Virus record (IMG/VR): IMGVR_UViG_3300042987_000761
Span: 1 to 56,544 of that record
Length of the DNA: 56,544 bases
Source of the DNA: a virus
Lineage: Duplodnaviria > Caudoviricetes
Direction: 5' to 3' (one strand)
Shown: piece after piece, positions 32,470 through 51,329 of the stretch
How positions within the stretch are numbered: position 1 is the first letter of the stretch
Layout: the number at the start of each line of letters is the position of its first letter
Translations under genes and position numbers: made by a program
The notes under the pieces: generated by a model
Databases searched by the model: none
Seen by the model: only the letters and a program-made list of their open reading frames with translations
Told to the model about the DNA's origin: nothing

Positions 32470-32754
32470 TGTATCCGTTGTATCCGTATTATCAGCTTAC
32501 TAACGGATACAGAAAGTTAGTGACCGCTAACTCCAAGCGCGAAGCCACACACGTACGTGAGAAGCACCCCGATTGTTTGTATCCGTTGTATCCGCCGTTC
32601 TGTCGTCTAGAACTTTCCTGTCGCAAGCTTGCGACAAGAATTTGACCCGCGCGTGTGCGGATACAACGGATACAGAACCCCGTTTTTTCGACTGGGAGAG
32701 GGTGTTCCATGAGGTGTTCCATGAGGGGGGTCTGGACCGGATACAGCGGATACA
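32470..32754. repeat. Non-coding element A: iterated TGTATCCG/CGGATACA octamers around a perfect palindrome TGTCGCAAGCTTGCGACA (32619-32636)
   Basis: Octamers at 32470, 32479, 32504, 32578, 32587, 32658, 32667, 32738, 32747 (plus 32373); 12-bp direct repeat ggtgttccatga at 32701 and 32713; inverted homologue of 51049-51329. Confidence 0.92.
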
Positions 32755-32826
32755 GACCTCTTTGAACTTCTGGTGCGCCGCAACAAGACCTTCGATGCGG
32801 ACCCGGTGCTGCAGGGTGTTTGTATT

Positions 32827-33261
32827 CTACCGTGCTCTGAGCAGCGCGTCAATGATGTCTAAATCACTCGCCTTTTGCAGGTCTACCGCTACCGCCGCCA
32901 TCCTGAATTCCGGAGCCGCCATTCCTTCGAACAGCGCCAGCGCCAGTCTCGACGGGAACACGTACATCATATCTTGGTGCTGTACGGCAATCCATGATTT
33001 GGTGCCAAATTCGCGTCGGGTCCAGTGCCAGTTCGCTTGCCACGCCGTGTAGTGCGGCACCTTTACTACGGTCTTGTTCCATTTCGGAAACTCCGGCAGC
33101 ACCTTGAGTTCGATCCAGCCGTGAAGCTGCGGAGACACGCCGAAATACACATCCGGCATGCCTTGCAGCAGCTTATTCTCTACTCGATCTGCTCGCCAGC
33201 GGGTACCCATCACCTTACACAGCCGATCCCACAACGCTTGTTCCGGTTTCCTCATACCCAC
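32827..33261 (-). CDS. PD-(D/E)XK nuclease (VRR-NUC / Holliday junction resolvase-like)
   Basis: E...RVEN..GMPD...WIELK...Q..W. Confidence 0.8.
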   Translation of the reverse strand: MGMRKPEQALWDRLCKVMGTRWRADRVENKLLQGMPDVYFGVSPQLHGWIELKVLPEFPKWNKTVVKVPHYTAWQANWHWTRREFGTKSWIAVQHQDMMYVFPSRLALALFEGMAAPEFRMAAVAVDLQKASDLDIIDALLRAR

Positions 33262-33307
33262 GGGAGCCTCTCCTTGGTACTTTCCTTGCCTTTAGGCATT
33301 GGGGTAG

Positions 33308-33595
33308 CTATATTAGTAGCTGGTAACTATCCAGAAGCGCTTTTCGGGCCTCTTCTGGCGTCCTTCCAGCCTTGAATGGTGACTGCCTATCACCTTTATA
33401 ATCCACAAAATACGCCAAGCTGACGTGTGGTTCTTGGTCTATTTTAACATCCACGCCCGAGGTCTGCTCGATCGCCTCGCAGTCCGGGCATTGCAAAAGG
33501 CTCCCATCGGAGGAGGGGTCGCCGACCCGCTGGACCTCCTCGTCCCAACAGATCGACCCGCATTCGAGGCACTTTGAGAATTCGAACTTATGCAT
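33308..33595 (-). CDS. Zn-ribbon protein
   Basis: CLEC...CPDC; start MHKF after GGAG. Confidence 0.65.
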   Translation of the reverse strand: MHKFEFSKCLECGSICWDEEVQRVGDPSSDGSLLQCPDCEAIEQTSGVDVKIDQEPHVSLAYFVDYKGDRQSPFKAGRTPEEARKALLDSYQLLI

Positions 33596-33605
33596 TTTGC
33601 TCTCC

Positions 33606-34460
33606 TCACCAGCCATATCGTCCGGCACAGATTGGGCCGATCCCGCGTTCGATGCTTTCTTTGTTCGTCAGCTTTGCTCCGCAGCAGGAGCAGACTCCGG
33701 TGCGCATGCCAAATGCCACAGCCGCCATCTTCGGATCTGATGCCACCTGCAATACCTGCTGCTCAGTGGTGTCGTCGCATTCGCGGACCTTGAAGAATCG
33801 GCCAGCGGATATCTTACCCAAATATTGATCGCCGGATTTCACGTAGATCGCACCCGCATTCTTCGATGCGTCGGATGCCGGGGAGAAGATGAAGTCGGCC
33901 AGCCGGAGCTTCGGGAATTTCAGGCCTGATGATTTCGCATTGGCGAATGCGGTCTCGATGGTGGTGATATCGACCGAAGGGGCGGAGGCTTGGCGCTCGG
34001 CTCGCTCGGATTCGATGCGGATTTTGCGCTCGGCGGATTGCGCGGTCAGGCGCTGGACGGTAGCCATCTGCTTCTCGGTCAGGGAGCCGAATTTATACAG
34101 CGCCACCAGCATCGATTGAGCGAATTCGAATGTGGGTGCGGATTCGTTCATCCACTTGAATTCCGCAGGGAAAGAATCGGTCCACTGGATGACCTGCTGC
34201 GCGAGCACCTCGGCGGCGGCTTCCTTGCGACGGGCTGCGCTGGCCTTCGCTTTGGCGCGATGCTCAGGCGACGTCTTGAATTCATGCTTGCCCTGGCCAT
34301 CGCATGCGAAGCATTTGGCTGATCGGACGTATGTGTATCCGATCGTGACGATGCCTTTGCCGCCACATTTCTTGCATGGCTCGGTGAACACTGTCCGACC
34401 TTCCTTGATGGGCGTCGCGGTGAGCGGTGTATCTAGATCGTCGAATGTGATGGTATTCAT
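33606..34460 (-). CDS. DUF6011-like protein with N-terminal DnaJ-type zinc motifs
   Basis: CKKCGGKG, CFACDGQG, C-terminal CSCCGAKLTNKESIERGIGPICA. Confidence 0.8.
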   Translation of the reverse strand: MNTITFDDLDTPLTATPIKEGRTVFTEPCKKCGGKGIVTIGYTYVRSAKCFACDGQGKHEFKTSPEHRAKAKASAARRKEAAAEVLAQQVIQWTDSFPAEFKWMNESAPTFEFAQSMLVALYKFGSLTEKQMATVQRLTAQSAERKIRIESERAERQASAPSVDITTIETAFANAKSSGLKFPKLRLADFIFSPASDASKNAGAIYVKSGDQYLGKISAGRFFKVRECDDTTEQQVLQVASDPKMAAVAFGMRTGVCSCCGAKLTNKESIERGIGPICAGRYGW

Positions 34461-34482
34461 GGTCGGTCTCCTCTATCGTCTA

Positions 34483-34803
34483 TCAGGCGGTGGCTTGGGA
34501 TTGGGCGATGAATGCTTGGGCTTGCTTGATGCGGCGGTCGAGGCCCCACATCGCGATCATGAGGTCGCCGCGCTTGACTGCCTTCTCTGCGCACATTTTG
34601 TACAGCATCAGCTGATATTCGGAATCGAATATGGAATGAGAAAAATCCGCATCGCGCCCGTTCGCTACTATCTCCTCGCGCAACCTGAGGTATTTGGCCA
34701 CCATGCCATTCGGGTTGAATGCGTGGAATTGTGCCCTCTGGCGATTGGTCCAGCTGGACTTGGTGCAGGTCGCGATTTCGGTCACTGTCTTGAGCTTTGC
34801 CAT
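34483..34803 (-). CDS. Early hypothetical protein
   Basis: ATG preceded by the conserved ATAGACGATAGAGGAG box. Confidence 0.75.
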   Translation of the reverse strand: MAKLKTVTEIATCTKSSWTNRQRAQFHAFNPNGMVAKYLRLREEIVANGRDADFSHSIFDSEYQLMLYKMCAEKAVKRGDLMIAMWGLDRRIKQAQAFIAQSQATA

Positions 34804-34825
34804 TTTGCTTCTCCTCTATCGTCTA

Positions 34826-35014
34826 TTAGATGGTACCTGCGTTGATGTCGTCGTGACCGAATGTGGTGCGAGCGATATCAGCGGCTATATCCACACCCTC
34901 GGTCAGCAGCGAATCGGTCCAAGCTGGCGATTGCCCCAATTCGAGCGTGTCGATCACGTCATCGGTCACATCGATCGTCTGGCCGGTGGTATTGTCGATT
35001 ATCACGAATTTCAT
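34826..35014 (-). CDS. Early hypothetical protein
   Basis: First gene after the promoter at 35062-35090; conserved RBS box. Confidence 0.7.
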   Translation of the reverse strand: MKFVIIDNTTGQTIDVTDDVIDTLELGQSPAWTDSLLTEGVDIAADIARTTFGHDDINAGTI

Positions 35015-35061
35015 TTTGCTTCTCCTCTATCGTCTATCCGGTGAAATCCACCGTGAGACAA

Positions 35062-35090
35062 ATTATACCACCACTGGAGTAATCTGTCAA
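35062..35090 (-). promoter_or_regulatory. Consensus sigma70 promoter
   Basis: TTGACA-17 nt-TATAAT with TG extension. Confidence 0.9.
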
Positions 35091-35107
35091 TATATTTCTT
35101 TGCATTA

Positions 35108-35332
35108 TCAGGACAATAATGGGTCAGGCTCGGCCAGCATGCGCTTAATCTCGTGAATCGGAAGTCCGGTGGCGTCGTGGACGCGCAGGATCCATTCGGG
35201 TCCAAAAGCGATGGTGCCGTTACGCAGCTTGCAGATATTCGGGGGTAGCACTCCGAGTGCCAGCGCCAATCGGCGGTCGTTCTTGAGCCGGTAGCGGCGC
35301 TTGAGGTAATTTAGGACTGAGGCGGTAGACAT
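35108..35332 (-). CDS. XRE/Cro-like HTH regulator
   Basis: LKNDRRLALALGVLPPNICKLRNG. Confidence 0.75.
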   Translation of the reverse strand: MSTASVLNYLKRRYRLKNDRRLALALGVLPPNICKLRNGTIAFGPEWILRVHDATGLPIHEIKRMLAEPDPLLS

Positions 35333-35554
35333 CTACGCATTTCCGAATGGTTCGTGGACCATCTCCTCACCACCGAGGATCAGGACCGACATTTCGAGTT
35401 CACCGATCATCTCGTGGTAGAGTCGATCCAGTTCGGCGAGGGTGGTATTTTGCACGGGTCGGAGGCTCTCGTCGATCGCGCAGTCGTACTTCTGGACTGC
35501 CGCCACCAGTGCTCGTAGCTGCCAACGATATGGATTGTCGCGGAATGTGGTCAT
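35333..35554 (-). CDS. Hypothetical protein
   Basis: 73 aa, tiles with neighbours. Confidence 0.55.
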   Translation of the reverse strand: MTTFRDNPYRWQLRALVAAVQKYDCAIDESLRPVQNTTLAELDRLYHEMIGELEMSVLILGGEEMVHEPFGNA

Positions 35555-35671
35555 GGGTCGTCTCTCGAAGTATCAACGCGTATATTAGAACACCGGCCAC
35601 GCCGATGAACAACCCAATGCCGATCAGCCCTCCGGCCAGCATCAGCATGAATTCAGCAAGTACATACGCGT

Positions 35672-35935
35672 TCATATGACCACCTTATTTCGTATAGCGG
35701 CAGCGATCGCCAACGTTCCATACCCTTCGATTCCCATCTGTTCGACCAATGTTGCGTTAAGCTCCCGCGCTACATGAAATCCTTCCCTGTAGCCTTCGTA
35801 GTGCGCGAGCCACTTGCCATTCAATGCGTCTTCACTCATCGGGTCTACTTCACCGCTCTTCATGCCTTCGATGTACGCGTCTTTGCGGTTAGTAGCGAAT
35901 GCTGCAGCCAGTAGGTGTAGATCATCGTCATCCAC
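35672..35935 (-). CDS. Hypothetical protein
   Basis: GYGTLAIAAAIR ending, common in small phage genes. Confidence 0.65.
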   Translation of the reverse strand: MDDDDLHLLAAAFATNRKDAYIEGMKSGEVDPMSEDALNGKWLAHYEGYREGFHVARELNATLVEQMGIEGYGTLAIAAAIRNKVVI

Positions 35936-36242
35936 TGTTCTTCTCCTTTAGCTTGGCTTCGATGGCGCGACCGAGGCTGTACTTCTTTCCTTCGTGGCTT
36001 TGCCCATAGATCATCATCATCTCCTCATCCGTCAACCCTTGCCATTCGCGCTGTAATCTACCTTTCTCATACCCCTGCGCCCAAGCGTTACTCACCTCGT
36101 GCTTCCACCATTGCTCTGAGCGTTGCTCTGGCTGCGCTAGTCGGGCGCGTAGGGATTCGATTGTGTCGCTGTAAATTTCTTTAGCATCACCCACATATGT
36201 CAACGCATACAGCGCCTCTTGCATTAGCTCTTTGTCGGTCAT
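35928..36242 (-). CDS. Hypothetical protein (WQGLTDEE...AIEAKLKEKN family)
   Basis: Recurrent small phage early-gene motif. Confidence 0.75.
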   Translation of the reverse strand: MTDKELMQEALYALTYVGDAKEIYSDTIESLRARLAQPEQRSEQWWKHEVSNAWAQGYEKGRLQREWQGLTDEEMMMIYGQSHEGKKYSLGRAIEAKLKEKNSG

Positions 36243-36448
36243 GACGCACCCCTCTCGCGGATAGCAGAAGCGCAGTCTGCTGGATTCGCGTCAGCGTACT
36301 CATCGCCTAATCTGTCACAGACTGCTGCACACGCCTCGCGCTCCGCTTCTGCTACCAGCTTGGCAAAGCGTTCAAGACTAGGGTGTGAATAGTCATACAT
36401 CACCAGCCCAGCTTCCCGCGCCATGCGGACAATGTCATCTCTAGTCAT
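36239..36448 (-). CDS. Hypothetical protein (AEREACA family)
   Basis: LERFAKLVAEAEREACA motif. Confidence 0.75.
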   Translation of the reverse strand: MTRDDIVRMAREAGLVMYDYSHPSLERFAKLVAEAEREACAAVCDRLGDEYADANPADCASAIRERGAS

Positions 36449-36638
36449 AGTGACCCCGAGGTGAAAATTTTACATCGCGCTTGGCGCTCATGTATTGACT
36501 GATGGTCTTACGTTCAAGGCATGGCTTGCACACCCAACGGGGTACGCCTCGGGTCGGTTTGACAACGCCACCTTCAGTAGATCGGACCGCTTGGCAGGAC
36601 GTGCAGAATCGGGTTTCAACGGTGGTGTCGGTCGTCAT
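36441..36638 (-). CDS. Small Zn-finger protein
   Basis: FCTSC...WVCKPC. Confidence 0.7.
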   Translation of the reverse strand: MTTDTTVETRFCTSCQAVRSTEGGVVKPTRGVPRWVCKPCLERKTISQYMSAKRDVKFSPRGHYD

Positions 36639-36774
36639 ATGCGTCTTTCAGTAAGATGTAAGATATTCCGGCCATGCACATCAGCCAGAACCATTCGCTC
36701 GATTCGAGCGCCAGATAGAATCCGGCAGCGGATACCGCAGATGCGATGAACATATCCCAGTCCTCCATGCTCAT
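36616..36774 (-). CDS. Small membrane protein (52 aa, below track threshold)
   Basis: MSMEDWDMFIASAVSAAGFYLALESSEWFWLMCMAGISYILL...; fills the gap with an ATGA overlap. Confidence 0.5.
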   Translation of the reverse strand: MSMEDWDMFIASAVSAAGFYLALESSEWFWLMCMAGISYILLKDAYDDRHHR

Positions 36775-37127
36775 TCGAGATTCATCTTTTTGATCGCATT
36801 TCGCACCCGCATGACCCCGACGCCCTTATTCGGCGCGTCCAAGTACAGCGAGTGCGATAGGCCGTACCGATCGCACAGGACCGAGGGTGGCTCGGACGGA
36901 CCGGAAGGTACCTTCGTGGCCTTCGGCTCCACGGCGGGTACTGATGTATTCACCCGACCCGTCACGCGTCCCGCAGATACCGTCACGCCGCTCTTGGTGG
37001 TATACGACGTGTTCATCTTCTCGCCGTGCGGAGGCTTGGCCCACCACGGCACGTAATTCGGGTCGTTGAATGACCGGGGCTGGTGCTCCAGCAGCACCTG
37101 CTCGACGATTTCCTGATCAGTCGCCAT
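36771..37127 (-). CDS. Hypothetical protein
   Basis: Probable start MATDQ; C-terminal APNKGVGVMRVRNAI. Confidence 0.55.
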   Translation of the reverse strand: MATDQEIVEQVLLEHQPRSFNDPNYVPWWAKPPHGEKMNTSYTTKSGVTVSAGRVTGRVNTSVPAVEPKATKVPSGPSEPPSVLCDRYGLSHSLYLDAPNKGVGVMRVRNAIKKMNLE

Positions 37128-37314
37128 TGACGATGGCCTCCAATGCCTTGAATAGTTCCATGTCCGAGATGGGTGGTTTACCCTCGGGCTGCTCGAATGA
37201 CGCCTGTAGGCCCCGCTCATTTCGCAGCGCCCAGAATTTCACGATGAAGCGGCCATTGAATAACATCTCGCCGCTGAATTCACCATCAAAGATTCGGATT
37301 TTAGTCATCGCCAT
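37117..37314 (-). CDS. Hypothetical protein
   Basis: Probable start MAMTKIRIFDG after GGGAG. Confidence 0.55.
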   Translation of the reverse strand: MAMTKIRIFDGEFSGEMLFNGRFIVKFWALRNERGLQASFEQPEGKPPISDMELFKALEAIVNGD

Positions 37315-37510
37315 ACTCCCGCTCATATTGGTCCCATGCAAGGTCTGCTGCAGCCGCTTCATGTCTCGCCCAAGCCGAATCCAGCGCCATCTCGCGCAGG
37401 ACCCGACGCGCATCGGCTTCAGAGTCGAATGTCCAGTCGCCATTCATGTGAATGGTGGCATGAGTGATCTGGAATCGACCTTCGGGGGTGGTGATTACGG
37501 AATAAGTCAT
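37301..37510 (-). CDS. Early hypothetical protein
   Basis: Follows the promoter at 37559 and a conserved RBS box. Confidence 0.7.
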   Translation of the reverse strand: MTYSVITTPEGRFQITHATIHMNGDWTFDSEADARRVLREMALDSAWARHEAAAADLAWDQYEREYGDD

Positions 37511-37558
37511 TGAAAATCTCCTCTATCATCTATGGGGTGCCGGATCGCCAGCACCCCT

Positions 37559-37587
37559 ATTATAGCACGGGTGTAGTATTTTGTCAA
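37559..37587 (-). promoter_or_regulatory. Consensus sigma70 promoter
   Basis: TTGACA-17 nt-TATAAT with TG extension. Confidence 0.9.
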
Positions 37588-38054
37588 GCACCACGGAGAG
37601 CCTTGCGGATCATATTGCCGAGATTCATGCGCTGCATGCCGACATTCAGACCCTCATATTTCGCCTTCAGCGCGGTCGGCTTGATGTCCACCAGCTTGGC
37701 CGCGAATGCGTATACCTCGTCGATCGTCATGGCGCGGAGCTTGGCCGCGACTTCATCGCCGCAATCCAGTGCTCGCTTGAGCGATCCATCGGCGCGGGTC
37801 ACGCGGTTCGCCACATATTGCGGCAGGTAGAGGGAATCGACCACGCCATTCTTGCGCTCATTGATGTCGATCACCTTGCGAGCTTTCGGCTCGGCCTTCT
37901 TAACCGGCAGCGCTGCTGCCTCATGGACGTCGGTCACTTCGGTGCTTCGCACAGATACCTCCTTTTTGTCGTGCTGGCGGATGCGGACCCAGCCACGCGA
38001 TACTGTCAGGATTTCAACTGCTTTGCCGGTCTTGGTGTAGGTAGCGATTTGCAT
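37584..38054 (-). CDS. Early hypothetical protein
   Basis: 156 aa; DCGDEVA...LNVGMQRMNLGN; conserved RBS box. Confidence 0.75.
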   Translation of the reverse strand: MQIATYTKTGKAVEILTVSRGWVRIRQHDKKEVSVRSTEVTDVHEAAALPVKKAEPKARKVIDINERKNGVVDSLYLPQYVANRVTRADGSLKRALDCGDEVAAKLRAMTIDEVYAFAAKLVDIKPTALKAKYEGLNVGMQRMNLGNMIRKALRGA

Positions 38055-38101
38055 TTTGTTTCTCCTCTATCATCTATGCTGGGAAAATCCCCAGTAACTA
38101 T

Positions 38102-38130
38102 ATTATACCACGGGTACGATACTTTGTCAA
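38102..38130 (-). promoter_or_regulatory. Consensus sigma70 promoter
   Basis: TTGACA aagtatcgtacccgtgg TATAAT. Confidence 0.9.
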
Positions 38131-38366
38131 GTATTTGCGTGAGACTGTTGTTTCGGTGCAACAAGCGGGTCGAATTGAAATTCGCACATTTTGCCGAGTC
38201 TCGCCGCCGATCCCTCGCCGAACCACTCGTCGTAGTACCGCTCGACCATCGCAAGCGACATACGACTGAAATCCGGAAATTCGACATCGGGAGACGTATC
38301 TTCGATTTCCATCTCCATGATCCGCTTTTCCATCCACACGCGACGCATTTTTCTGGACATTCCCAT
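38127..38366 (-). CDS. Hypothetical protein
   Basis: Start MGMSRK after TAGACGATAGAGG. Confidence 0.55.
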   Translation of the reverse strand: MGMSRKMRRVWMEKRIMEMEIEDTSPDVEFPDFSRMSLAMVERYYDEWFGEGSAARLGKMCEFQFDPLVAPKQQSHANT

Positions 38367-38395
38367 TTCATCACCTCTATCGTCTAAAATGTCAT

Positions 38396-38722
38396 TCATT
38401 TGCGATTCTGCCACGCTTTTTTGATGGCTTCCCACACCCCGGCCCATCCGACCGGCTCCACCTTCTGTATCGGCTCCGGATCGGCTGATCGGACCCCGAC
38501 GATTTCGCCGTACTTGATCTGCGGCACGAATGCGGTGGTCTTGGCCGCGATCGTCTCTTTACGCTTCTTCGACGCCGCTTTACGCTTTTTCTTGCCCACA
38601 ACCCACCGGGCGGTGTATACCTGCTGGCGGGTCAAGCCAAGTGCCTCGGCGACCACTTTCGATGGCGCTTTGGGATTCGCTTCGAGGTACGTTCGTACTC
38701 GATTGGTGATAGATGTCTTCAT
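38396..38722 (-). CDS. HTH DNA-binding protein
   Basis: PSKVVAEALGLTRQQVYTAR, basic linker. Confidence 0.7.
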   Translation of the reverse strand: MKTSITNRVRTYLEANPKAPSKVVAEALGLTRQQVYTARWVVGKKKRKAASKKRKETIAAKTTAFVPQIKYGEIVGVRSADPEPIQKVEPVGWAGVWEAIKKAWQNRK

Positions 38723-38723
38723 G

Positions 38724-38966
38724 TCAGTCCTTCACGAAATAGAGGACGCAGACCGTGATCACGGACAGGATGATTCCCCATTCGAGGACTTCGATCCAGA
38801 TGTTGTGTCGCAGTGGCTGATCCTTCGGCAGCAGCACCCCTTGAATCATTCGCTCGTCATCGGACGGTACGAATCGAGGCTGCTCATATCGGATGCCGAT
38901 CTTGATTTTGCCCGTGTCGTACGGTACCAGCTTCGGCGTGTTGGTGGTGAAGTGTTCGTCGTTCAT
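38724..38966 (-). CDS. Small membrane protein
   Basis: PYDTGKIKIGIRYE, C-terminal TM. Confidence 0.7.
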   Translation of the reverse strand: MNDEHFTTNTPKLVPYDTGKIKIGIRYEQPRFVPSDDERMIQGVLLPKDQPLRHNIWIEVLEWGIILSVITVCVLYFVKD

Positions 38967-39250
38967 CAGACTAGCTCCATCGTCTTGATATTCATCTGCT
39001 CAGATGGCTTCATGAATTCCGGTAGCTTCTTCGGTCCGATGAATGCACGGACCTTTTCGGAATCCAGTATCATCTTGCTGGTGAAGGTAATCTCCACCGC
39101 GCAGTTCTTCGATGAGTAGGTGGCGGCACCACCCTCGCGGAACATCTCCTTCAGCTCCTTCTCGCGAGCGGTCAAGGCGCGTAGCTTCTCGCGCACGGTG
39201 ACCAATTCATCGACCATATCTTCGGTGATCACTACTTTAGACTTTGCCAT
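38966..39250 (-). CDS. Hypothetical protein
   Basis: First gene after the promoter at 39294. Confidence 0.7.
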   Translation of the reverse strand: MAKSKVVITEDMVDELVTVREKLRALTAREKELKEMFREGGAATYSSKNCAVEITFTSKMILDSEKVRAFIGPKKLPEFMKPSEQMNIKTMELV

Positions 39251-39293
39251 TTTACCCTCTATTCGCTATGTTCGGGAAGTCCCCGTGATATGA

Positions 39294-39322
39294 ATTATAC
39301 CACGGGTACCATACCTTGTCAA
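39294..39322 (-). promoter_or_regulatory. Consensus sigma70 promoter
   Basis: TTGACA aggtatggtacccgtgg TATAAT. Confidence 0.9.
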
Positions 39323-39326
39323 GTAT

Positions 39327-39692
39327 CTACCACGTGACGGTGGTCGAAACGGTGTGACCATTATCAGACTGATAAGTCTTTACCAACGGCTCGTCGTGTG
39401 GACCGAGCAATTTGTCAAGCTCTAGATCGTCGGTCAGCCGGTCCCGCGCCAGCTGCGCGTAGCCCACTAGATCGACCCATGAATCCGGGTATCTCGGGTC
39501 GCCATTTACGATCCGCGCCATCTTGTGGCAGATCATATCAAGCGATTCTTTCATGTACGACGGCATGAATTCGTACGACCGGCCATGCCGGATTATATCC
39601 TTCAGATCGATCGCGAGTTTCGCCTGTTCGCGAAAGTCACCATAATTCTTAGCACGTTCACTTATGATCTTGTGTATTGACTCTTGACTCAT
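39327..39692 (-). CDS. DUF6378-like protein
   Basis: ERAKNYGDF...ESLDMICHKMARIVNGDP...DSWVDLVGYAQL. Confidence 0.8.
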   Translation of the reverse strand: MSQESIHKIISERAKNYGDFREQAKLAIDLKDIIRHGRSYEFMPSYMKESLDMICHKMARIVNGDPRYPDSWVDLVGYAQLARDRLTDDLELDKLLGPHDEPLVKTYQSDNGHTVSTTVTW

Positions 39693-39825
39693 CGATTTTC
39701 TCCCTAGTGGTCATACGATGTTTGCATTTCACGTTCTTACACTCACGACGACGCTTTATCGAGTTATCAACATTTTTGTATGTCAATATCACGTGCGTCG
39801 CCGAATCACACTTCACACATTTCAT
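39658..39825 (-). CDS. 55-aa NrdR-N/Ogr-like zinc-ribbon protein (not in the ORF track)
   Basis: MKCVKCDSATHVILTYKNVDNSIKRRRECKNVKCKHRMTTREKI...; ATGA overlap with the datZ stop. Confidence 0.75.
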   Translation of the reverse strand: MKCVKCDSATHVILTYKNVDNSIKRRRECKNVKCKHRMTTREKIDESRVNTQDHK

Positions 39826-40361: not shown

Positions 40362-40590
40362 GTACTTTCATCATTGCATCTGCTTGTGCATATGCAGTTC
40401 GAGCATTTGATTCGAGATGATGCGGTTCGACATACCCTTTATTGTTTATCACTAGACTCTGTACTATCTTCGCTGCGAAGTAATCGCGCAATGTCATGCC
40501 GGTGTGCACATAACGCTGATTACTCTGCGGATGGTCGAATGTGAGTGGGAATGCTAGATACTCTTCTTTAGGTTCTACGTTATCAGACAT
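40345..40590 (-). CDS. Conserved small phage protein
   Basis: AFP...GMTLRDYFAAK...AYAQADAMMK. Confidence 0.75.
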   Translation of the reverse strand: MSDNVEPKEEYLAFPLTFDHPQSNQRYVHTGMTLRDYFAAKIVQSLVINNKGYVEPHHLESNARTAYAQADAMMKVRDESE

Positions 40591-42086: not shown

Positions 42087-42113
42087 GAATGCCCTCTATA
42101 GGTTAGAATGTGT

Positions 42114-42122
42114 ATTATAACA
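42114..42122 (-). promoter_or_regulatory. Extended -10 promoter upstream of purZ
   Basis: TGtTATAAT in the pol-purZ intergenic region; -35 is weak. Confidence 0.55.
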
Positions 42123-42144
42123 TAATCGTACGGGTGACGTAGTA

Positions 42145-43965: not shown

Positions 43966-43970
43966 AGCGA

Positions 43971-44240
43971 TCAGAATGGTAGGTCATCGTAGAATTCCTT
44001 GCCCACTTCGCGACTGGTCGTGCTGGCCGAAGGCGGTGGGTCCTTGCGATTGATCGCGATCGAGAAGTATTTCTGCCCATCGAGCTTCGATCCGGGTCTG
44101 CCTTCCTTAACCCACGCGGACATCCAGTATTCGACGCCCTCGACGTTGATGGTGCCGGTATACTCGGGATGCGTGTCCTTCTCTTTGCGCTTGTTACGAG
44201 CGAGCATGCCGGAATTGGTGTTGTCGTATTCTTTGTTCAT
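43971..44240 (-). CDS. Small ssDNA-binding-like protein
   Basis: HPEYTGTINVEGVEYWMSAW and SSB-type acidic tail DDLPF. Confidence 0.7.
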   Translation of the reverse strand: MNKEYDNTNSGMLARNKRKEKDTHPEYTGTINVEGVEYWMSAWVKEGRPGSKLDGQKYFSIAINRKDPPPSASTTSREVGKEFYDDLPF

Positions 44241-44254
44241 ATGCTAATCTCCAG

Positions 44255-45670
44255 TTAAATTTTATACCCATTAAGACCTTCGACGATATCTAGGGTATGC
44301 TTAGCTCTCGTCATCCCGACATACCAGACGCGAATCTCGTCATCGGGCTTTTTCTCCGCAGTTTCGGTCACTTTCTGCGTAGTATCCGTAAGTAATATGA
44401 CTCTATCGGCTTCATGACCTTTTGATGCATGAATAGTAGAAAGCCGCAGACGAGGCACACTATCGAGATTAGCATCACGATAAAAGTCAATAACCCTAAA
44501 TGGAATATCGAGTGCAATATAGAACGGCTTAGATAGTATGGCCTCATAATCGTTCTTCTCAAGATGTCCTCTAGTCTCTGGCGTCGCCACGTTATATAAC
44601 GCGGTGCGTTCGGATTCCTGCAATATCGCGCCACTCTTTAACTTGTTATACGCCATCACGCCCTTGGCATATTTATTCTGATACATGCCCGGTCTGCCCG
44701 ATTCTCGCAGATAAGGAATGCGTCTGTCAATCAGGTCCTTTTCGATCTCTCGCAAGACCGAATGCGTCCGTCCCAACAATAGGATATCCTCTTGTGGTGA
44801 TATCGCCACCGAGTTGATGTTACCGTGTACCTGTACGGATCCCATATCCGGTCGGGGATTGAACTCCTTATCGACGCGCAGAGTGATTCGACGTATGAGC
44901 GCTTGCGATCTTTGGTGCACACTAACAGGTAATCGATGTGATACCGATAACACTTGGCTATCACCGCTGTGCTTCGCGATGAATCGAGCCATGCCGTGTG
45001 GATCGGCCCCCGACCATGCGAAGATCGCCTGATCGTCATCACCCGCGATATGGATTTCTTCTGCACCTTTCGCAAAGCAGTCGATGACCCGCCACTGAAG
45101 AGGTGATAAATCCTGTGCTTCATCGACGAATATAATTTCGGCGTCAGGGTGCGACTTCTTTTTGGCGACTCGCTCCAGCATGTCGGTGAAGTCGTAAAAT
45201 CCATAAGTATCCTTCCAGTCAGAATACGCTCGAAGAAACATATTGAACTCGGCGCGGGTTCCGGGTCTGGTGCTGTAGTCATACACGATCGCAGGATCAG
45301 TGAAGGTATTCCGTGCATAATTGATGATGTCCAGATAAGAATCGCCGTCTGCTCGTTCTTCGTCGTCCTCGGGTGACTTGCCGATCACCGGCACACCGAC
45401 GAGTGACGAGAATTCGCGCAGCTTTGCAGGGTCCACCACCTGTGACTGCTTGAGATTCAGCAGACGGAAGCACATCGAGTGAATGGTGGATACATTGTTG
45501 CTACGTTTAAGGCCCAAGCGTGACAATGCCTCGCTCGCCGCCGCACGTGTGAATGACACGAATGCGATACGCTCGGCTTGGACACCGGATGACTTGGCTT
45601 CGGCGACGCGACGTAACATCTCGGTCGTCTTACCAGTCCCCGGTGGGCCGTAGATAGCGTAGACTTGCAC
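44255..45670 (-). CDS. UvrD/Rep-like superfamily 1 helicase
   Basis: GPPGTGKT, SFTRAAA, VDEAQDLS, AGDDDQAIF, STIHASKG.E, YVGMTRAK. Confidence 0.93.
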   Translation of the reverse strand: MQVYAIYGPPGTGKTTEMLRRVAEAKSSGVQAERIAFVSFTRAAASEALSRLGLKRSNNVSTIHSMCFRLLNLKQSQVVDPAKLREFSSLVGVPVIGKSPEDDEERADGDSYLDIINYARNTFTDPAIVYDYSTRPGTRAEFNMFLRAYSDWKDTYGFYDFTDMLERVAKKKSHPDAEIIFVDEAQDLSPLQWRVIDCFAKGAEEIHIAGDDDQAIFAWSGADPHGMARFIAKHSGDSQVLSVSHRLPVSVHQRSQALIRRITLRVDKEFNPRPDMGSVQVHGNINSVAISPQEDILLLGRTHSVLREIEKDLIDRRIPYLRESGRPGMYQNKYAKGVMAYNKLKSGAILQESERTALYNVATPETRGHLEKNDYEAILSKPFYIALDIPFRVIDFYRDANLDSVPRLRLSTIHASKGHEADRVILLTDTTQKVTETAEKKPDDEIRVWYVGMTRAKHTLDIVEGLNGYKI

Positions 45671-45954
45671 TAGCGGTACCTCGGTACGCAGGTCACATCG
45701 ACCACCACATCTGCGGTGTAATTCGACACTTTACGCTTGCTGAACACCATCGCGGCTCGCAGACCACTCGACTCGCATTCCTGCACCGCGAGAATGACTT
45801 CATTCCTGCTCATCGGGTGAATGCTCTTATCGAGTATCAAGTCTTGTGTTCCATCGGTGTTGCTGCTGGCGTAATATTTACTCGGCTTGTCGGATGAACA
45901 TCCATACATGATGAAGATGAATAGCATCACGCAGCATAAAAATAATATTCTCAT
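45670..45954 (-). CDS. Putative lipoprotein
   Basis: Hydrophobic signal followed by IMYGC. Confidence 0.65.
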   Translation of the reverse strand: MRILFLCCVMLFIFIMYGCSSDKPSKYYASSNTDGTQDLILDKSIHPMSRNEVILAVQECESSGLRAAMVFSKRKVSNYTADVVVDVTCVPRYR

Positions 45955-45975
45955 ATCTATCCTCTAGTAGTAGGT

Positions 45976-46044
45976 GGGGTACTCACCGCACAGGATTTAT
46001 CCTTAACAATCGTGGTTGACGTTAAGCAAGTGCAGCTTTCCCCC
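45976..46044 (-). ncRNA. Candidate structured RNA with loop-E-like internal loop
   Basis: GGGG/CCCC, GAA/AGUA, GCUGCAC/GUGCGGU and CUUAAC/GUUAAG pairings found by eye. Confidence 0.45.
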
Positions 46045-46049
46045 GTACA

Positions 46050-46787
46050 TCAGAACTCTTCTGCGACCTCTGCAGATTCGTCGTAATCAGCGTTGACCTT
46101 CACGCCGCCCTTCGAGATAACCTCGTACAGCTTCTCGGCGCGGTCGTATATCTCCTTCGACACGAATCCGATCGGGGTTACGTTGAAGTTATGATACTGT
46201 TCATTCCGAGCGTTGGTCTCGACGACCGAAGACAGCTTGTACGCACGTGAGAATGAGTCGGTCTCGGTCAGGCGCATGAGCGAATTCCAGCGCTTGGACA
46301 CTTTGACCTTCGACTTGGCCATCGATACCACTGCTTCCGACCATTTGTCACCATGCAGGACCAGCACGAAATGCTGCGCGGTATCCGAGATTTCGAGACC
46401 TTCCTCGTTCAGACCCGCGATCGCGGCTTCCGCGTCTGATCGGGTGTTGAATGCTCCACGGAATCCGTTGGTGCCGCCACCCATCTTGCGATCCTTCCAT
46501 ACCAAGAACTGCTTCTGGTAGTACACCGGAACGACCATCACTTCGAGACCGTATAACTCGCGTGTGACGTTGTTGAACATCATGCCCTCATCCGCACCTT
46601 CGATGTAGGCAGGGTCCGATTTCTTTCTAGCCGGTGATAGCGCCTGAATGAGTTCGATTCGCGGAATGATGACGTCTTCGGATCCGACGTTTTCAGCTCC
46701 TCGATTCGACCCCTTCTTCAGAAATTCTGGTATGTCGTCGGTCACTGCGAATGCTTCAACCTTCGTCACTGCGTTGCTTTTAGCCAT
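46050..46787 (-). CDS. Putative ssDNA-binding/annealing protein
   Basis: IPRIELIQALSP, SKRWNS, acidic tail EEF; in the replication module. Confidence 0.65.
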   Translation of the reverse strand: MAKSNAVTKVEAFAVTDDIPEFLKKGSNRGAENVGSEDVIIPRIELIQALSPARKKSDPAYIEGADEGMMFNNVTRELYGLEVMVVPVYYQKQFLVWKDRKMGGGTNGFRGAFNTRSDAEAAIAGLNEEGLEISDTAQHFVLVLHGDKWSEAVVSMAKSKVKVSKRWNSLMRLTETDSFSRAYKLSSVVETNARNEQYHNFNVTPIGFVSKEIYDRAEKLYEVISKGGVKVNADYDESAEVAEEF

Positions 46788-46800
46788 GTTAATTCTCCTT

Positions 46801-46856
46801 AAATGGCGTGGATATCAGACACACCGAAGTGTGCCACTTACTACCGCTTGCGCGGA
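46801..46856 (-). promoter_or_regulatory. Structured 5' leader with GCAA and UUCG tetraloop hairpins
   Basis: CCGC-GCAA-GCGG and GGCACAC-UUCG-GUGUGUC directly upstream of AAGGAG. Confidence 0.5.
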
Positions 46857-46857
46857 T

Positions 46858-47292
46858 TCAAGACTTGGTGATCGATGCACGAGTGAATGGTGACACATTC
46901 AACAGCTCTTCCGGCACTACTTCACCCTCGCGGACCATGTTCTTAACGGTTGCCTTCAACGTGCTTGGATTGATATTCGGCTGTATCAGATCGCCGCGCC
47001 CATTATCGCGTAGCCATGTGTAGAACAGCTCCTTGCTGCCCTCCTTGATCGATACATGCATATCTGCGGTGAGCGACACACGCCCCACGCCCTCGACATT
47101 CAAATTACGAATACCTTGATCTTCCATCTCTTGCGGTATCTTGGTGATACGCAGAAAGTCGAAATGCTTATTAAATCTCTTGAGTTCAGCCTCGGCGTTG
47201 TCCTTGTCGGTCTGCACACGACGCATCTCGCGGATGAGTTCCATCAGCGTCATGCCGTCGTACATCGAGAATTCGTTAGTATCAAATGACAT
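46858..47292 (-). CDS. Conserved replication-module protein
   Basis: WLRDNGRGDLI...INPSTLKA motif. Confidence 0.75.
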   Translation of the reverse strand: MSFDTNEFSMYDGMTLMELIREMRRVQTDKDNAEAELKRFNKHFDFLRITKIPQEMEDQGIRNLNVEGVGRVSLTADMHVSIKEGSKELFYTWLRDNGRGDLIQPNINPSTLKATVKNMVREGEVVPEELLNVSPFTRASITKS

Positions 47293-47617
47293 CGCGATCC
47301 CCTTCGAGGTCTATGCGAATCGGAGTGTATGTGTGATCGCGGTTGTTCCACTTCAGGAAATTGAACGAGCTGCCCTTTTCACGCGCAAGCGCCATAGCAA
47401 TGCAAGCGATGATAGGGCTACCAGATGGAGCGAGGTAATCTTCAGCCGGATTAAAATTTCTAAGACGGTCGCGAATATTGTTGACAAGTTTAACATTATG
47501 TAATGAACTCAGTGAACCGGAAACTTCTGAAGCGCATAAGAATACGACATCACCATAACGCTCGGCTGGGCGATAATTGGCAACGGCGACTTCCTGCGTG
47601 ATGTATACTGTAGGCAT
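47282..47617 (-). CDS. Conserved hypothetical protein
   Basis: Start MPTVYITQE after GAGAGG; DYLAPSGSP, FLKWN. Confidence 0.7.
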   Translation of the reverse strand: MPTVYITQEVAVANYRPAERYGDVVFLCASEVSGSLSSLHNVKLVNNIRDRLRNFNPAEDYLAPSGSPIIACIAMALAREKGSSFNFLKWNNRDHTYTPIRIDLEGDRDVI

Positions 47618-47638
47618 CTCTATCCTCTCGGTGGAATA

Positions 47639-47667
47639 ATTATAGCACATTATGCTCAAGCGATCAA
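47639..47667 (-). promoter_or_regulatory. sigma70-like promoter
   Basis: TTGATC-17 nt-TATAAT with TG extension. Confidence 0.6.
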
Positions 47668-49383
47668 TGCCTCGACGTTTTTACTATTGATGCTCTCGCG
47701 TACGAACTCCGATACATTCTTTTTGTCTTGCAAAGCGGACAATATCGCGCCATCGACCGACTTCTCCATCACCAGATCGATGTACAACACCGACTTGGTC
47801 TGACCGATCCGATGCGCACGATCTTCCGACTGATCGCGTTCGACGTAATTGAACGAATTGCTAAAATACACTACTAATTCGGCGGCGGTCATATTCAGAC
47901 CGGTGCCCCCGGTCGCCGCGTTCCCGACCAGAAATCGTGCCTTCTTCTTCTGGAATAGCTCCTGCACGTTGTGATCGCGATCCTTTTCGGACACCTGACC
48001 GTATATCTCGACCACTTGGTCGTGACCATACTTGGCGCGTAGAGCCTCGGACACCATATGAATCTCTTCGATGAATCGGCACCACACGATAGTGGACACT
48101 TGATATTCCTCGGCGATACTGAGCAGTTCCTCTATCTTCGGATTCCGACCGGGGATTCGCGAGTGTTCGTACTTTGAGGGATTGAACAAATCCGGATTCC
48201 TTTCAAATGTGACGATACCTCCGCATATCTCTTGGAGTCGTAGCATTCTCTCCAACACCGTATTGACTGTGAGTCCTCGATCCCCCACGACTGCACGGTT
48301 TTTCTTAGCAATGTCTGTATACAGGCTTTTCTGCTCTTCATTAAACTGCACTTCTCGGATTTCATACACTTTCGGTGGTAATTCGGTTAATACTTCGGAT
48401 TTACGTACTTGATACACATATGGTGACACTAACTCGATCAACTCCTCCATATTCTGATAGCCGATGATCTGCTTACCCTCGAACCCGCCCATTACCGCGT
48501 AGCGGTTCCTGAATGAGAAGAAGTCGCCGCTGCCGATGATATTCTCATCGAGGAATTCGAACTGCATATACAGGTCGAGTGGCGCATTCGCGATCGGAGT
48601 GCCGGTCATGACCAGCTTGTACTTGGCACCACGCCCGATCTTAACCGCATTCTTGGCTCGCACCGCATTATGGGTCTTAATCATATGCGCTTCATCAACG
48701 ATCATGCCAACGCGAGTGGACGTGTTCACGAATCTCTCGGCGTAAGTAGCTGCCGATCCCGCAGCCAGCGATTCAGTACCGACTATCAGTACCTTCAAAG
48801 CGTCGGTGGTGCTGGTGTTGAATGCGTCGAATATTTTAGGCTTGGTGGTGTCCAGTACCATCACTTCATACGGCACCGGGCAGTGAATCGCGAATTCGCG
48901 CTCCCAGTTCATGCGAGTCGAGAACTTGGTCACCACCAACAATCGATCTACATCGCCTTCCATATGATACGCCGAGAATAGATCGATCGAAGTCTTGGTC
49001 TTACCAGTACCCATATCCATGTAGTACGCGAATGACTCCTTTTTCCACGAGTACGACAGCGCTTTAAGCTGATACGCTCGCGGCAGCGTCTTGAATGGAT
49101 ACGTCGATGGGAATTCAGCGATCGGCGCGATCGACTTTACCTGTACAGCATTTCTGGCAACGTCATATGCCTCTTTAGACCAGAACTGATTAGGAAAGCG
49201 GTCAAGCATATAGGCGGCATTTGTTCGCAGCGCAGGTGCGGTCCAAACGCGACGCTTTGCATCCCAACGACGGTTAGGAATGGCACGAATGTGATCAATC
49301 GACCAAGGCGGCGATATGATGATGAACCGACCTGATTTCGGGTCATACGTGATATCAATATTCTGGCGTGAAGTCTGGAGCAT
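47656..49383 (-). CDS. SNF2-family (SF2) helicase
   Basis: MDMGTGKT, VDEAH, MTGTP, GTGLNMTAA, QSEDRAHRIGQ. Confidence 0.92.
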   Translation of the reverse strand: MLQTSRQNIDITYDPKSGRFIIISPPWSIDHIRAIPNRRWDAKRRVWTAPALRTNAAYMLDRFPNQFWSKEAYDVARNAVQVKSIAPIAEFPSTYPFKTLPRAYQLKALSYSWKKESFAYYMDMGTGKTKTSIDLFSAYHMEGDVDRLLVVTKFSTRMNWEREFAIHCPVPYEVMVLDTTKPKIFDAFNTSTTDALKVLIVGTESLAAGSAATYAERFVNTSTRVGMIVDEAHMIKTHNAVRAKNAVKIGRGAKYKLVMTGTPIANAPLDLYMQFEFLDENIIGSGDFFSFRNRYAVMGGFEGKQIIGYQNMEELIELVSPYVYQVRKSEVLTELPPKVYEIREVQFNEEQKSLYTDIAKKNRAVVGDRGLTVNTVLERMLRLQEICGGIVTFERNPDLFNPSKYEHSRIPGRNPKIEELLSIAEEYQVSTIVWCRFIEEIHMVSEALRAKYGHDQVVEIYGQVSEKDRDHNVQELFQKKKARFLVGNAATGGTGLNMTAAELVVYFSNSFNYVERDQSEDRAHRIGQTKSVLYIDLVMEKSVDGAILSALQDKKNVSEFVRESINSKNVEALIA

Positions 49384-50911
49384 CCACTTCTCCCTCTATG
49401 TCGTCGCTAATCGGAGCATACCACACGTTAATCGGGTACGAATGACCCGGAATACGCATCTTGGTATGCGCGGCACCACATTCCCGCCGCAGCGTGGTCC
49501 AAAGGTCCATACCCTGCTGCAGCTCGGCCTTGTTACGCTTCAAGAATTCGGAGAATGCGATACCCTTGAATACTATGCAGCGAATGCCGTCCAGCTCCTG
49601 CACCACCGGAATGTTGCGAGTCAATGCCTTGCGCTCGTGCGGATCCTTACCGTCTGATGTCAGATCGGCTTTCTGCATGAATTCGTGGAACTTCTGCTCG
49701 ATGATACCTGATGCTGATGCCTCCTTCGGTACTTCGATCACGCGGATATTCGGCACCAACGGATCTAGGATTCTTTTTCGCCACGCGTCCTGCGAAATCT
49801 TCGGAATATTGATTTTAAGTTGCTCGAAGATGAGAGTACCCATGGCGTTAGGATCACGGAGTACTACAGTAGGAATATTAGAAATAAGCTTACCGTTAAC
49901 GTGAAGTCCCCAGCGGGGAGGGTCCGACTGGTATTCGATAAGGTCGGTAAAACTAGGAAGGGAATCATACGCCTCCAATGCTTTAGCTTCGTCGGTGGAT
50001 ATTCCATATTCGCGTGTGACACACACTTTGCGATCACACAGCGACTTGCACGGGTCTTCACCACACTTGTACTGGTACTCGCGCCGCGATGCCGAGCGAA
50101 TGACCTTCCGCGCCTCCTGATTATTCAACGGTTTGTCGAACATCGTCCGATTCAGCGCCATCGCGTCATCGAAGAATGTCTCCGGTCGTGCGCGTTTGAG
50201 ATAGATGACCACGTTATACATGGCCTCATTACGAGCACCCGACTCAACACCAGTATGAATCATCTTCTGGATGCAGGGTGGTGCCTCCAAATGCTCACGA
50301 TTCGCCAGCGCGTTCAGCTCTTCGACCGTCAGGCGCTTCGATTGTGCATACTGGATGAACAATTCGAACGACAGGCGCTTGCCGTCCTGATCAAACGCGT
50401 ACCGGTTGGTGTCATCGCCGCCGAAGTAGCAGAGATTCAACCAGTTGCCGAGCGACTTCTCGCCGGATTTGGTCACCACCGAGTCCTGTTTCGGGAATAT
50501 CTCGGTCTTGTGCGGAATCTGCAGGATGTCGCGCCACGATGACAGCAGCCGGATTACCACTTTCGCCGGTAGCCACTCCGAACCGAACAGGTAGCAATGA
50601 GCACCCCCGCGCTTGGACCGACATACCACCAACGGCAATCGGTGCTGCTCGATCTTCCTGATTAGTGCCAGATGATCGATATCCTCCGAACTCTCGTGGG
50701 CGTCCACATCGATCGCCCCGAACATAACAGTGCCGCCATCGGAAATCGGTACGATCCCGAGGCCCATCGTGCCTTCGATATGCGCCTGATAATGGTCAAT
50801 CGTCGGCTCGCCCTTCTCGGTCACCGCCCGATCGGTTTTAGCGTCGTACTGACCGAACGACCGCAGATTTCCCGCGAACAACGCTGCATAATCATTGATT
50901 AAGCTGGACAT
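49355..50911 (-). CDS. AEP-family primase-polymerase with PriCT-like domain
   Basis: AIDVD, RSKRGGAHCYLF, EIFPKQ, GNWLNL, GARNEAMYN, Cys cluster CGEDPC..LC...C. Confidence 0.85.
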   Translation of the reverse strand: MSSLINDYAALFAGNLRSFGQYDAKTDRAVTEKGEPTIDHYQAHIEGTMGLGIVPISDGGTVMFGAIDVDAHESSEDIDHLALIRKIEQHRLPLVVCRSKRGGAHCYLFGSEWLPAKVVIRLLSSWRDILQIPHKTEIFPKQDSVVTKSGEKSLGNWLNLCYFGGDDTNRYAFDQDGKRLSFELFIQYAQSKRLTVEELNALANREHLEAPPCIQKMIHTGVESGARNEAMYNVVIYLKRARPETFFDDAMALNRTMFDKPLNNQEARKVIRSASRREYQYKCGEDPCKSLCDRKVCVTREYGISTDEAKALEAYDSLPSFTDLIEYQSDPPRWGLHVNGKLISNIPTVVLRDPNAMGTLIFEQLKINIPKISQDAWRKRILDPLVPNIRVIEVPKEASASGIIEQKFHEFMQKADLTSDGKDPHERKALTRNIPVVQELDGIRCIVFKGIAFSEFLKRNKAELQQGMDLWTTLRRECGAAHTKMRIPGHSYPINVWYAPISDDIEGEVDAPDFTPEY

Positions 50912-50940
50912 GGTTTCCTCTAGTGTGCTCTATGCGACGC

Positions 50941-50969
50941 ATTATACCACAACTGCCACCCATTGACTA
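50941..50969 (-). promoter_or_regulatory. Promoter for the replication operon
   Basis: TAGTCA-17 nt-TATAAT with TG extension, upstream of the primase gene. Confidence 0.6.
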
Positions 50970-51048
50970 GTAGTAGCCATTGTGGTACACTATATGGGTC
51001 GGGTTCCGCGCAACGCGGGTCTCAGTATCATTTCTTCCCGACAATGGC

Positions 51049-51329
51049 TGTATCCGCTGTATCCGGCATAATGGAACAGGTCATGGAACGGCGAGAATCA
51101 AGACGGACGCGGCTCTTGGGCATTTGTATCCGCTGTTCCACGCGCGTGACCCCCTTATCCTGTCGCAAGCTTGCGACAGAGAACTTCCAGACGACAGAAC
51201 ACCGGATACAACGGATACAAGAAAACTGGAATATGTCTCACGTATGTGCGTGTATTAAGTCTCAAGAGAAGTGAGCGCTAATTAGCCTGTATCCGTTAGC
51301 AGCCTTATAATACGGATACAACGGATACA
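51049..51329. repeat. Non-coding element B: inverted homologue of element A, with palindrome CTGTCGCAAGCTTGCGACAG (51160-51179)
   Basis: Octamers at 51049, 51058, 51125, 51203, 51212, 51288, 51313, 51322; its reverse complement aligns block by block with 32470-32754. Confidence 0.92.

Follow-up and report, generated by a model that had tools for sequence, protein, structure and literature searches.

Genome organization

The window examined here is the whole 56,544-bp virus record IMGVR_UViG_3300042987_000761, rated 100% complete and devoid of end repeats, in which two homologous non-coding elements of ~290 bases each lie in opposite orientation at the two ends of the replication and Z-synthesis module. 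The minus strand carries all genes of the window, as indicated by the open reading frame (ORF) calls and family scans. As the initial annotation had claimed, there are just two long non-coding stretches (32350–32826 and 50912–51440), the other seeming gaps of the greedy ORF set being filled by an ORF of 971 amino acids on the minus strand, which extends past the start of the window.

In the direction of transcription, a run of virion and ejection genes is closed by an SLT-domain protein (52982–51441, minus strand), which lies upstream of the right element. The first gene after this element encodes an AEP primase (50911–49355, minus strand; PF22548, PriCT_1, four conserved cysteines), followed by an SNF2 helicase, Pam3 gp33-like and gp34-like proteins, a UvrD-type helicase, PolA, PurZ, MazZ, and DatZ. 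Many small genes then lead to a 144-amino-acid protein (33261–32827), the left element, the terminase small subunit (TerS; 31636–32349, minus strand), TerL, and the remaining virion genes. The ~18.3 kb between the elements therefore holds the primase, SNF2 and UvrD helicases, PolA, PurZ, MazZ, and DatZ, while the remaining ~38 kb holds TerS, TerL, and the virion genes, a division that had been proposed previously and is borne out by family scans of the genes on either side. A phmmer comparison with PDB sequences returned no match for the primase and only chance-level matches for the Pam3 gp34-like and 144-amino-acid proteins.

The paired element

The left element (32470–32755, plus strand) is collinear, block by block, with the reverse complement of the right element (51048–51329). 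All ten blocks quoted in the initial annotation were recovered in both copies, collinear and in the same order, the tenth (CCGGATACAGCGGATACAG) forming a 19-nt pair with 100% complementarity (32737–32755 and 51048–51066). A repeat search returned inverted arms of 72 nt at 85% (32568–32639 and 51158–51229) and 43 nt at 91% (32470–32512 and 51287–51329), and a blastn comparison of the window with itself aligned the two copies over 175 columns with 76% identity (E = 1.9e-27). The MAFFT alignment of both gaps gave a mean column identity of 72%, and the longest identical run between the copies is 23 nt. The window contains 20 copies of the word TGTATCCG, whereas 2.12 are expected (standard deviation 1.39; maximum 6 in 100 shuffles), and 18 of the 20 fall in the two gaps.

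Each element is bridged, in the arrangement seen in the window, by contigs of four runs from two samples. Given these contigs and the presence of the same pair in related phages, the pair is not an assembly artefact, a possibility that had been raised when it was first noticed. A blastn search with the left gap and a megablast search with positions 40000–52000 found no match in a phage collection, and Rfam covariance models run over 32200–51600 gave 0 matches at E ≤ 1.

Anatomy of the arrays

Repeat search, alignment, and word search resolve both copies, hereafter the left and right arrays, into the same order of parts: cluster A, an alternating purine/pyrimidine tract, cluster B, a palindrome, a second alternating tract, and clusters C, D, and E. 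The left array is read A to E on the plus strand and the right array on the minus strand; for each part below, the left coordinates are given first. Cluster A (32470–32511; 51329–51288) consists of two forward TGTATCC words and one reverse word, and is followed by the first alternating tract of 14–17 nt (32546–32559; 51255–51239) and by cluster B (32578–32593; 51219–51204), in which two forward words are spaced by 9 bp. The centre of each array is occupied by an identical palindrome, TGTCGCAAGCTTGCGACA, a perfect 18 bp (32619–32636; 51161–51178). The second alternating tract (CGCGCGTG...; 32648–32659; 51148–51139) leads into cluster C (32659–32674; 51140–51125), with two reverse words, which in the right array are one GTTCCA word and one TGTATCC word. 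Cluster D (32704–32721; 51089–51072) contains two forward copies of this second word, GTTCCA, and cluster E (32739–32754; 51064–51049) again contains two reverse words.

Each array comprises ~8–10 words of 8–9 bp, arranged as tandem pairs with a period of 8–9 bp and as nested inverted clusters around the central palindrome. As the clusters are nested inverted repeats, either single strand can fold into long nested hairpins, and the single-strand folding of the arrays is strong compared with shuffled sequences (z = −4.1 to −7.7). Alternating purine/pyrimidine tracts of at least 12 nt number 24 in the gaps of the ten genomes described below, where the remainder of these genomes predicts 1.34 (~18-fold; the genomes are related and are not ten independent tests). 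There is no clear A+T-rich block in the window's arrays, and unwinding may fall to the alternating tracts instead.

Conservation of the pair in related phages

Searches of IMG/VR retrieved 13 loci with the primase protein and nine with the TerS protein, and five full-length relatives (G001–G005), whose primases are 71–73% identical to that of the window, were compared in full. The inverted pair is present at the same two places in all six of these genomes (window included). The closest isolated phages by primase (40–45% identity) are the known Z-genome siphoviruses SH-Ab 15497, PMBT28, K21lambda1, and Kokobel2. In SH-Ab 15497, an inverted pair with 70.8% identity over 233 bp lies upstream of the primase and upstream of TerS, while K21lambda1, PMBT28, and Kokobel2 carry their arrays in direct orientation. 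Paired elements are therefore found in 10 of the 10 genomes examined, a presence in relatives that the initial annotation had set as a check, whereas the opposite orientation that was part of the same claim holds for seven and fails in the other three.

In every one of the ten genomes, one array immediately precedes the primase gene, and the early region has the second array at its distal end. The polarity of the primase-side copy is identical wherever the site order was read (the window group, G001–G005, SH-Ab 15497, and PMBT28). The left array is directly upstream of TerS in the window, G002–G005, and SH-Ab 15497, while in K21lambda1 and PMBT28 the second array is upstream of TerS at a distance of ~2 kb that includes other genes.

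The window shares with these four siphoviruses only the replication/Z module with its two arrays: of the 81 ORFs in the window, 13 match them, all within 32.8–50.9 kb. A similar discontinuity separates the window from G001, in which the replication module is 63–73% identical, while the virion module is different and TerL is only 37% identical, compared to 72–75% in the other four relatives. The Z module itself shows mixed relationships, with PurZ (41064–42086) being 73% identical to that of G001 and only 40–46% identical to those of G002–G005, and its neighbour MazZ showing the opposite trend (42% in G001 versus 57–67% in G002–G005); these opposed patterns point to a mosaic joint inside the module.

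Word drift and concerted change

Upstream-of-primase regions of the window and nine of the 13 primase loci were aligned, and the positions of the sites remain constant across the aligned loci while the word itself differs. The word is TGTATCC with a 9-bp period in the window and G001, TGTTACA in G002, TGTTCCA with an 8-bp period in G003–G005, CGTTCCA in K21lambda1 and PMBT28, CGGTTCC in Kokobel2, and CGGTTGC in SH-Ab 15497, and words are enriched in every relative. Two words are mixed at homologous sites in loci L010 and L012, and the window retains GTTCCA in cluster D. The arms of the TGTCGC...GCGACA palindrome recur in G001, G003, SH-Ab 15497, K21lambda1, and PMBT28, and are replaced in G002, G004, and G005.

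The two copies within a genome also change in concert, such that the best match of each copy is its partner in the same genome, and not its orthologue elsewhere, in five of seven genomes (the exceptions being G003 and G004). Drifting words at fixed sites, together with concerted copies, form the signature of sites that co-evolve with one sequence-specific binder, and the earlier proposal of selection on motifs is well founded in this respect. The graded series of words suits a conserved binder whose specificity drifts.

Candidate binder

The primase is the conserved protein whose gene always adjoins an array, and 476 homologues of its family were retrieved. Its structure model (pLDDT 88) has an AEP-like N-terminal domain, which matches Prim-Pol (7nqe, E = 4.5e-12) and, weakly, RepB' of RSF1010 (3h20, E = 3.5e-4), and a C-terminal part with a predicted helix-helix-wing topology. 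Among the variable columns of the primase alignment, those fixed differently between the TGTATCC genomes and G003–G005 amount to five of 31 in residues 445–500, the predicted helix-helix-wing region, versus seven of 228 elsewhere (Fisher p = 0.008, for a region picked post hoc and among related genomes). The SH-Ab 15497 primase likewise has unique changes in the predicted wing. This clustering is only suggestive of co-variation with the word. Based on the sequence comparisons and the structure model, the primase is possibly the binder of the words, acting through its C-terminal winged-helix-like domain, and is the best candidate we have.

TerS was also considered as a word binder and was excluded, since G001 shares the word and layout of the window and has no detectable TerS homologue.

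Sites flanking the arrays

On the right side, a sigma-70-type promoter for the primase operon (TAGTCA, 17 nt, TATAAT, with TG; 50941–50969, minus strand) lies ~80 nt beyond cluster E, with a conserved −10 element. Back to back with it, the opposite strand carries a promoter-like site (TTGACT, 17 nt, TACACT, with TG; 50963–50991, plus strand) that is directed into the right array from the E side. The segment containing this site is kept in six of the aligned sequences (the window group plus G001) and is missing from the other four. On the far side of the array, an intrinsic-terminator-like hairpin with a T run (51377–51397, minus strand) ends the late (virion) operon just before the array. The last late gene has its stop codon within an AGCTA-N6-TAGCT dyad (51427–51442) that was seen on this side and not on the left. 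All ten aligned upstream-of-primase regions have the GCTA..TAGC arms of the dyad without change, and the arms also occur in SH-Ab 15497, K21lambda1, and PMBT28, despite the primases of these phages being just 40–45% identical.

On the left side, a promoter-like site at the 3' end of the gene for the 144-amino-acid protein (TTGACG, 17 nt, TAGAAT; 32824–32852, minus strand) is directed into the left array from the E side, and an equivalent consisting of TTGACN, 17 nt, and an extended −10 element is found in G002–G005. Between the left array and TerS, outside the paired element, lie two exact copies of a 16-mer direct repeat, ATTCACGTCGTTTATA (32397–32412 and 32429–32444, plus strand). At this position, relatives have direct repeats of other sequences, e.g., two copies of CGATAGTT in G002 and two of GTTTCACG in G003, and the repeats ahead of TerS are candidate late-promoter or terminase recognition sites.

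The probable true start of TerS is an ATG at 32313. Within 32313–32332 (minus strand), an extended −10 element, TGTTTTAAT, ends 7 nt before this ATG, and TerS is therefore probably translated from a leaderless mRNA starting at 32313, and not from the TTG at 32349. An element resembling TGT-N-TAAT, followed after 6–7 nt by ATG, also precedes TerS in G002, G003, and G004.

Other features of the record

The first 2914 positions of the window are occupied by a minus-strand ORF with collagen-like 9-nt and 15-nt repeats that leaves the window start, and another ORF (55651–56544) enters at the window end; the record was probably opened within one long, repeat-rich fibre gene, at an assembly break. 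Two small genes (35928–36242 and 36239–36448) form a hot spot among the metagenome contigs, with a summed depth of up to ~4 times that of the flanks, and many joints and loose contig ends occur at 35936–35970 and at 36448 in all four runs, which suggests a cassette common to, or swapped among, many phages. A further cassette of ~76 nt is present in three copies on the minus strand (35019–35094, 38059–38134, and 39251–39326), each composed of a consensus promoter (TTGACA, 17 nt, TGGTATAAT), a short hairpin, and a ATAGAGGAG ribosome-binding leader, shorter copies of which occur at six sites from 34445 to 38386. These cassettes are probably early promoters for the host polymerase.

Interpretation of the arrays

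The reading that we rate highest, although at no better than an even chance, is that the two elements are origin-type arrays, i.e., initiator-binding sites for the assembly of a nucleoprotein complex. The comparisons above show the anatomy of the arrays, its conservation, the drift of the words at constant sites, and the joint change of both copies; protein binding of the words, the identity of the binder, and any origin activity are what we infer from them. The architecture of the arrays (tandem words, inverted clusters, a palindrome, strong folding, and alternating tracts) favors such a role, as does the content of the module, which encodes an AEP primase, PolA, and a UvrD-type helicase. Under this model, one phage-encoded protein would bind the words at both arrays, and this binder would be the AEP primase encoded beside the right array, acting through its C-terminal winged-helix-like domain, with the alternating purine/pyrimidine tracts serving as the part that is easily distorted or unwound. 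The right array would be the primary initiation site, where the primase binds and primes synthesis dependent on PolA (DpoZ). The same protein would also bind the left array, which lies beyond the early genes and close to those for packaging. There it could start synthesis a second time or on the opposite strand, or could halt forks and so bring about the change to concatemer synthesis, the role suggested for SPP1 oriR. The initial annotation had proposed a paired system of opposite-facing origins; an origin-type role is also our best reading, whereas the opposite orientation is not needed, given the three genomes with direct arrays.

Several observations weigh against this interpretation. Both arrays lie ~80–140 nt from promoters, which would fit a regulatory role too, and no model with a fixed relative polarity can be general, since the orientation of the arrays differs between clades. 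Three phages with more distant members of the primase family (023Pt_psg01, DSL-LC04, and ct3Et533; 25–32% identity) have no long gap upstream of the gene, and phiVC8 has a different layout and a different primase, so the element could not be traced into those groups. A fold search with the C-terminal domain of the primase gave no match at E ≤ 0.001 (the best being 0.048, with matches to replication initiators and winged-helix proteins at 0.06–0.9). Across the deep split, no primase column tracks the word: only three columns strictly separate the TGTATCC genomes from all GTTCCA genomes, all of them conservative changes, and SH-Ab 15497 has the residues of the GTTCCA genomes at these three. Nor does any whole protein co-vary with the word, with PurZ, an enzyme, being the only one for which the window and G001 are closer to each other. 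GC skew does not change sign or level at the arrays, although this is uninformative in itself as all genes are on one strand, and contig depth is a per-contig mean and is thus unreadable as a replication gradient.

The foremost competing explanation, which we consider unlikely, is that the arrays are operators or enhancers of a temporal transcription switch, where a phage regulator at the heads of the replication and packaging/virion operons would coordinate the expression of early and late genes, whether through repression, activation, a roadblock, or a loop joining the sites. The locations are apt, with the right array lying between the late terminator and the primase promoter and the left between a conserved promoter-like site and TerS, and in PMBT28 and K21lambda1 sigma-70-like sense promoters directly follow both arrays. 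Word drift and concerted change would also fit any sequence-specific binder. However, 8–10 words over ~290 bp with a palindrome and alternating tracts far exceed the needs of known phage operators, and no helix-turn-helix family was found among 27 window proteins scanned with Pfam, PHROGs, or NCBIfam (small ORFs were only partly scanned). The genome-specific direct repeats between the left array and TerS are, moreover, a simpler candidate for late-promoter control.

It is improbable that the arrays are chiefly recombination boundaries that promote exchange of the whole module between phages, the "swappable cassette" of the initial annotation. That proposal is supported in part, in that the module with its arrays is common to siphoviruses with no detectable shared virion gene, and the virion module of G001 is a different one while its replication module is equally related. 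A chief role as boundary is nonetheless disfavored, since words differ between lineages, with low cross-genome scores, which leaves distant phages with little homology in the arrays, and since mosaic joints, as at PurZ, are also found within the module. That the sites keep their internal order points to a function within each phage, of which exchange may be a side effect.

Action at the RNA level is more improbable again. Here, the late operon would have the left array as its structured leader or attenuator (lambda Q-type), while transcription of the right array from the opposite-strand promoter would yield a homologous non-coding RNA. Promoter-like sites do aim into both arrays of the window from the E side, and the folding potential is strong. 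However, the opposite-strand promoter segment is missing in four of the ten aligned sequences, the polarity of the arrays in the three enteric phages is opposite to sense transcription, Rfam yielded no match, and tandem direct words with an 8–9-bp period are typical of protein sites and not of RNA helices. We give marginally less credence still to the arrays being packaging signals (pac or cos recognition arrays for TerS); the left array does adjoin TerS in the window, G002–G005, and SH-Ab 15497, but the right array is ~19 kb from the terminase genes, G001 keeps the same word and layout with its divergent TerL and no detectable TerS homologue, and genes separate the second array from TerS in PMBT28 and K21lambda1.

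The least probable explanation is the suggested flip-flop substrate, in which recombination between inverted copies would invert the 18-kb replication segment as in the yeast 2-micron plasmid: inverted homologous copies do occur in seven of the ten genomes, but the copies are just 72–76% identical with identical runs of at most 23 nt, three genomes have direct copies, all genomes (including all seven with the inverted pair) are assembled with their genes on one strand, contigs assembled from four runs of two samples have no inversion joint at the elements (contigs drop rare variants), and the tyrosine and serine recombinase families PF00589 (Phage_integrase) and PF00239 (Resolvase) had no match in the record, while the controls matched in 14 and 12 of 14 genomes, respectively. 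The last result agrees with the initial annotation, which had noted no visible site-specific recombinase.

Comparison with known replication systems

The Bacillus phage SPP1 has two similarly organized origins ~13 kb apart, both bound by gp38, of which oriR lies in a long intergenic region of late genes, where forks are proposed to stall and thereby set off the theta-to-sigma switch (PMC6316719). The arrays resemble SPP1 oriL and oriR in that two distant sites of the same organization are present per genome (in all ten genomes here), one in or at the initiator gene and the other near late genes; the SPP1 sites, as described there, consist of repeats plus an unwinding element and are recognized by the same origin-binding protein. 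The machinery differs, with SPP1 using gp38, a helicase loader, and a DnaB-type helicase along with the host replisome, whereas the module of the window encodes an AEP primase, PolA, UvrD, and SNF2. Among the module proteins, family scans gave no DnaB-type or loader match that would indicate homology to gp38, gp39, or gp40, although the SPP1 proteins were not compared directly. In the sources seen, SPP1 has nothing that corresponds to the words of the window, to their nested inverted arrangement, to the palindrome at the centre, or to the alternating tracts.

Tandem short repeats that co-evolve with an initiator, in or beside the initiator gene and with an unwinding region, also liken the arrays to lambdoid and plasmid iteron origins; these are normally single-copy with an A+T-rich unwinding element, whereas the window has two copies, with alternating tracts in the place of that element. 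In satellite phage P4, ori and crr are separate cis sites that contain the same octamer words, are both needed, and are bound by a primase-type initiator, and the P4 octamer resembles the TGTTCCA word. The P4 alpha protein has its own SF3 helicase domain, and a few kb separate ori from crr, which is a direct duplication. The IncQ plasmid RSF1010 combines an iteron origin (oriV) with an AEP-fold primase, RepB', and uses hairpin priming sites, ssiA and ssiB, on opposite strands for strand-displacement synthesis. The N-terminal domain of the window's primase resembles RepB' weakly, as given above, but ssiA and ssiB adjoin each other within a single origin, unlike the window's arrays 18 kb apart, and homologues of the RSF1010 iteron binder RepC and helicase RepA were not detected in the window. 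ColE2 Rep offers a further resemblance. Lastly, the yeast 2-micron repeats and the Gin/Hin invertible segments share with the window an inverted pair bracketing a large segment, but those repeats are near-identical and have a dedicated recombinase, whereas the window has diverged copies, no recombinase match, and no inverted isomer in the contigs, with direct copies in some relatives.

Implications for Z-genome phages

The phage belongs to those with aminoadenine (Z) genomes, in which Z:T pairs have three hydrogen bonds and A+T-rich regions therefore no longer melt easily. A more specific joint reading, which is unlikely to hold in all its parts, is that the arrays are Z-genome origins adapted to DNA whose A+T-rich regions melt poorly. 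Opening would then proceed through the alternating purine/pyrimidine tracts and the cruciform-prone nested inverted words around the TGTCGC..GCGACA hairpin, and the primase would bind via its C-terminal winged-helix-like domain and prime DpoZ directly. The two arrays would provide either one start per strand or one start plus a programmed fork barrier beside the packaging genes.

In Z-genome phages, biosynthesis (PurZ, MazZ, and DatZ) and polymerization (DpoZ) are well studied, while where and how replication starts goes unmentioned in the literature searched. Likewise, no published description of these elements, or of any origin in this phage group, was found in the searchable full text, a body that takes in neither supplements nor subscription journals. 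The interest of the finding lies in there being no origin known for Z-genome phages within that literature. A conserved, paired, and recognizable cis element in the cultivable phages SH-Ab 15497, PMBT28, K21lambda1, and Kokobel2 provides an experimental handle on initiation. It is relevant to the opening of DNA that lacks weak A:T pairs, and could provide the cis component still missing from plasmid systems meant to replicate Z-DNA in bacteria. If the arrays are regulatory instead, they would still mark the early/late switch points of this phage group.

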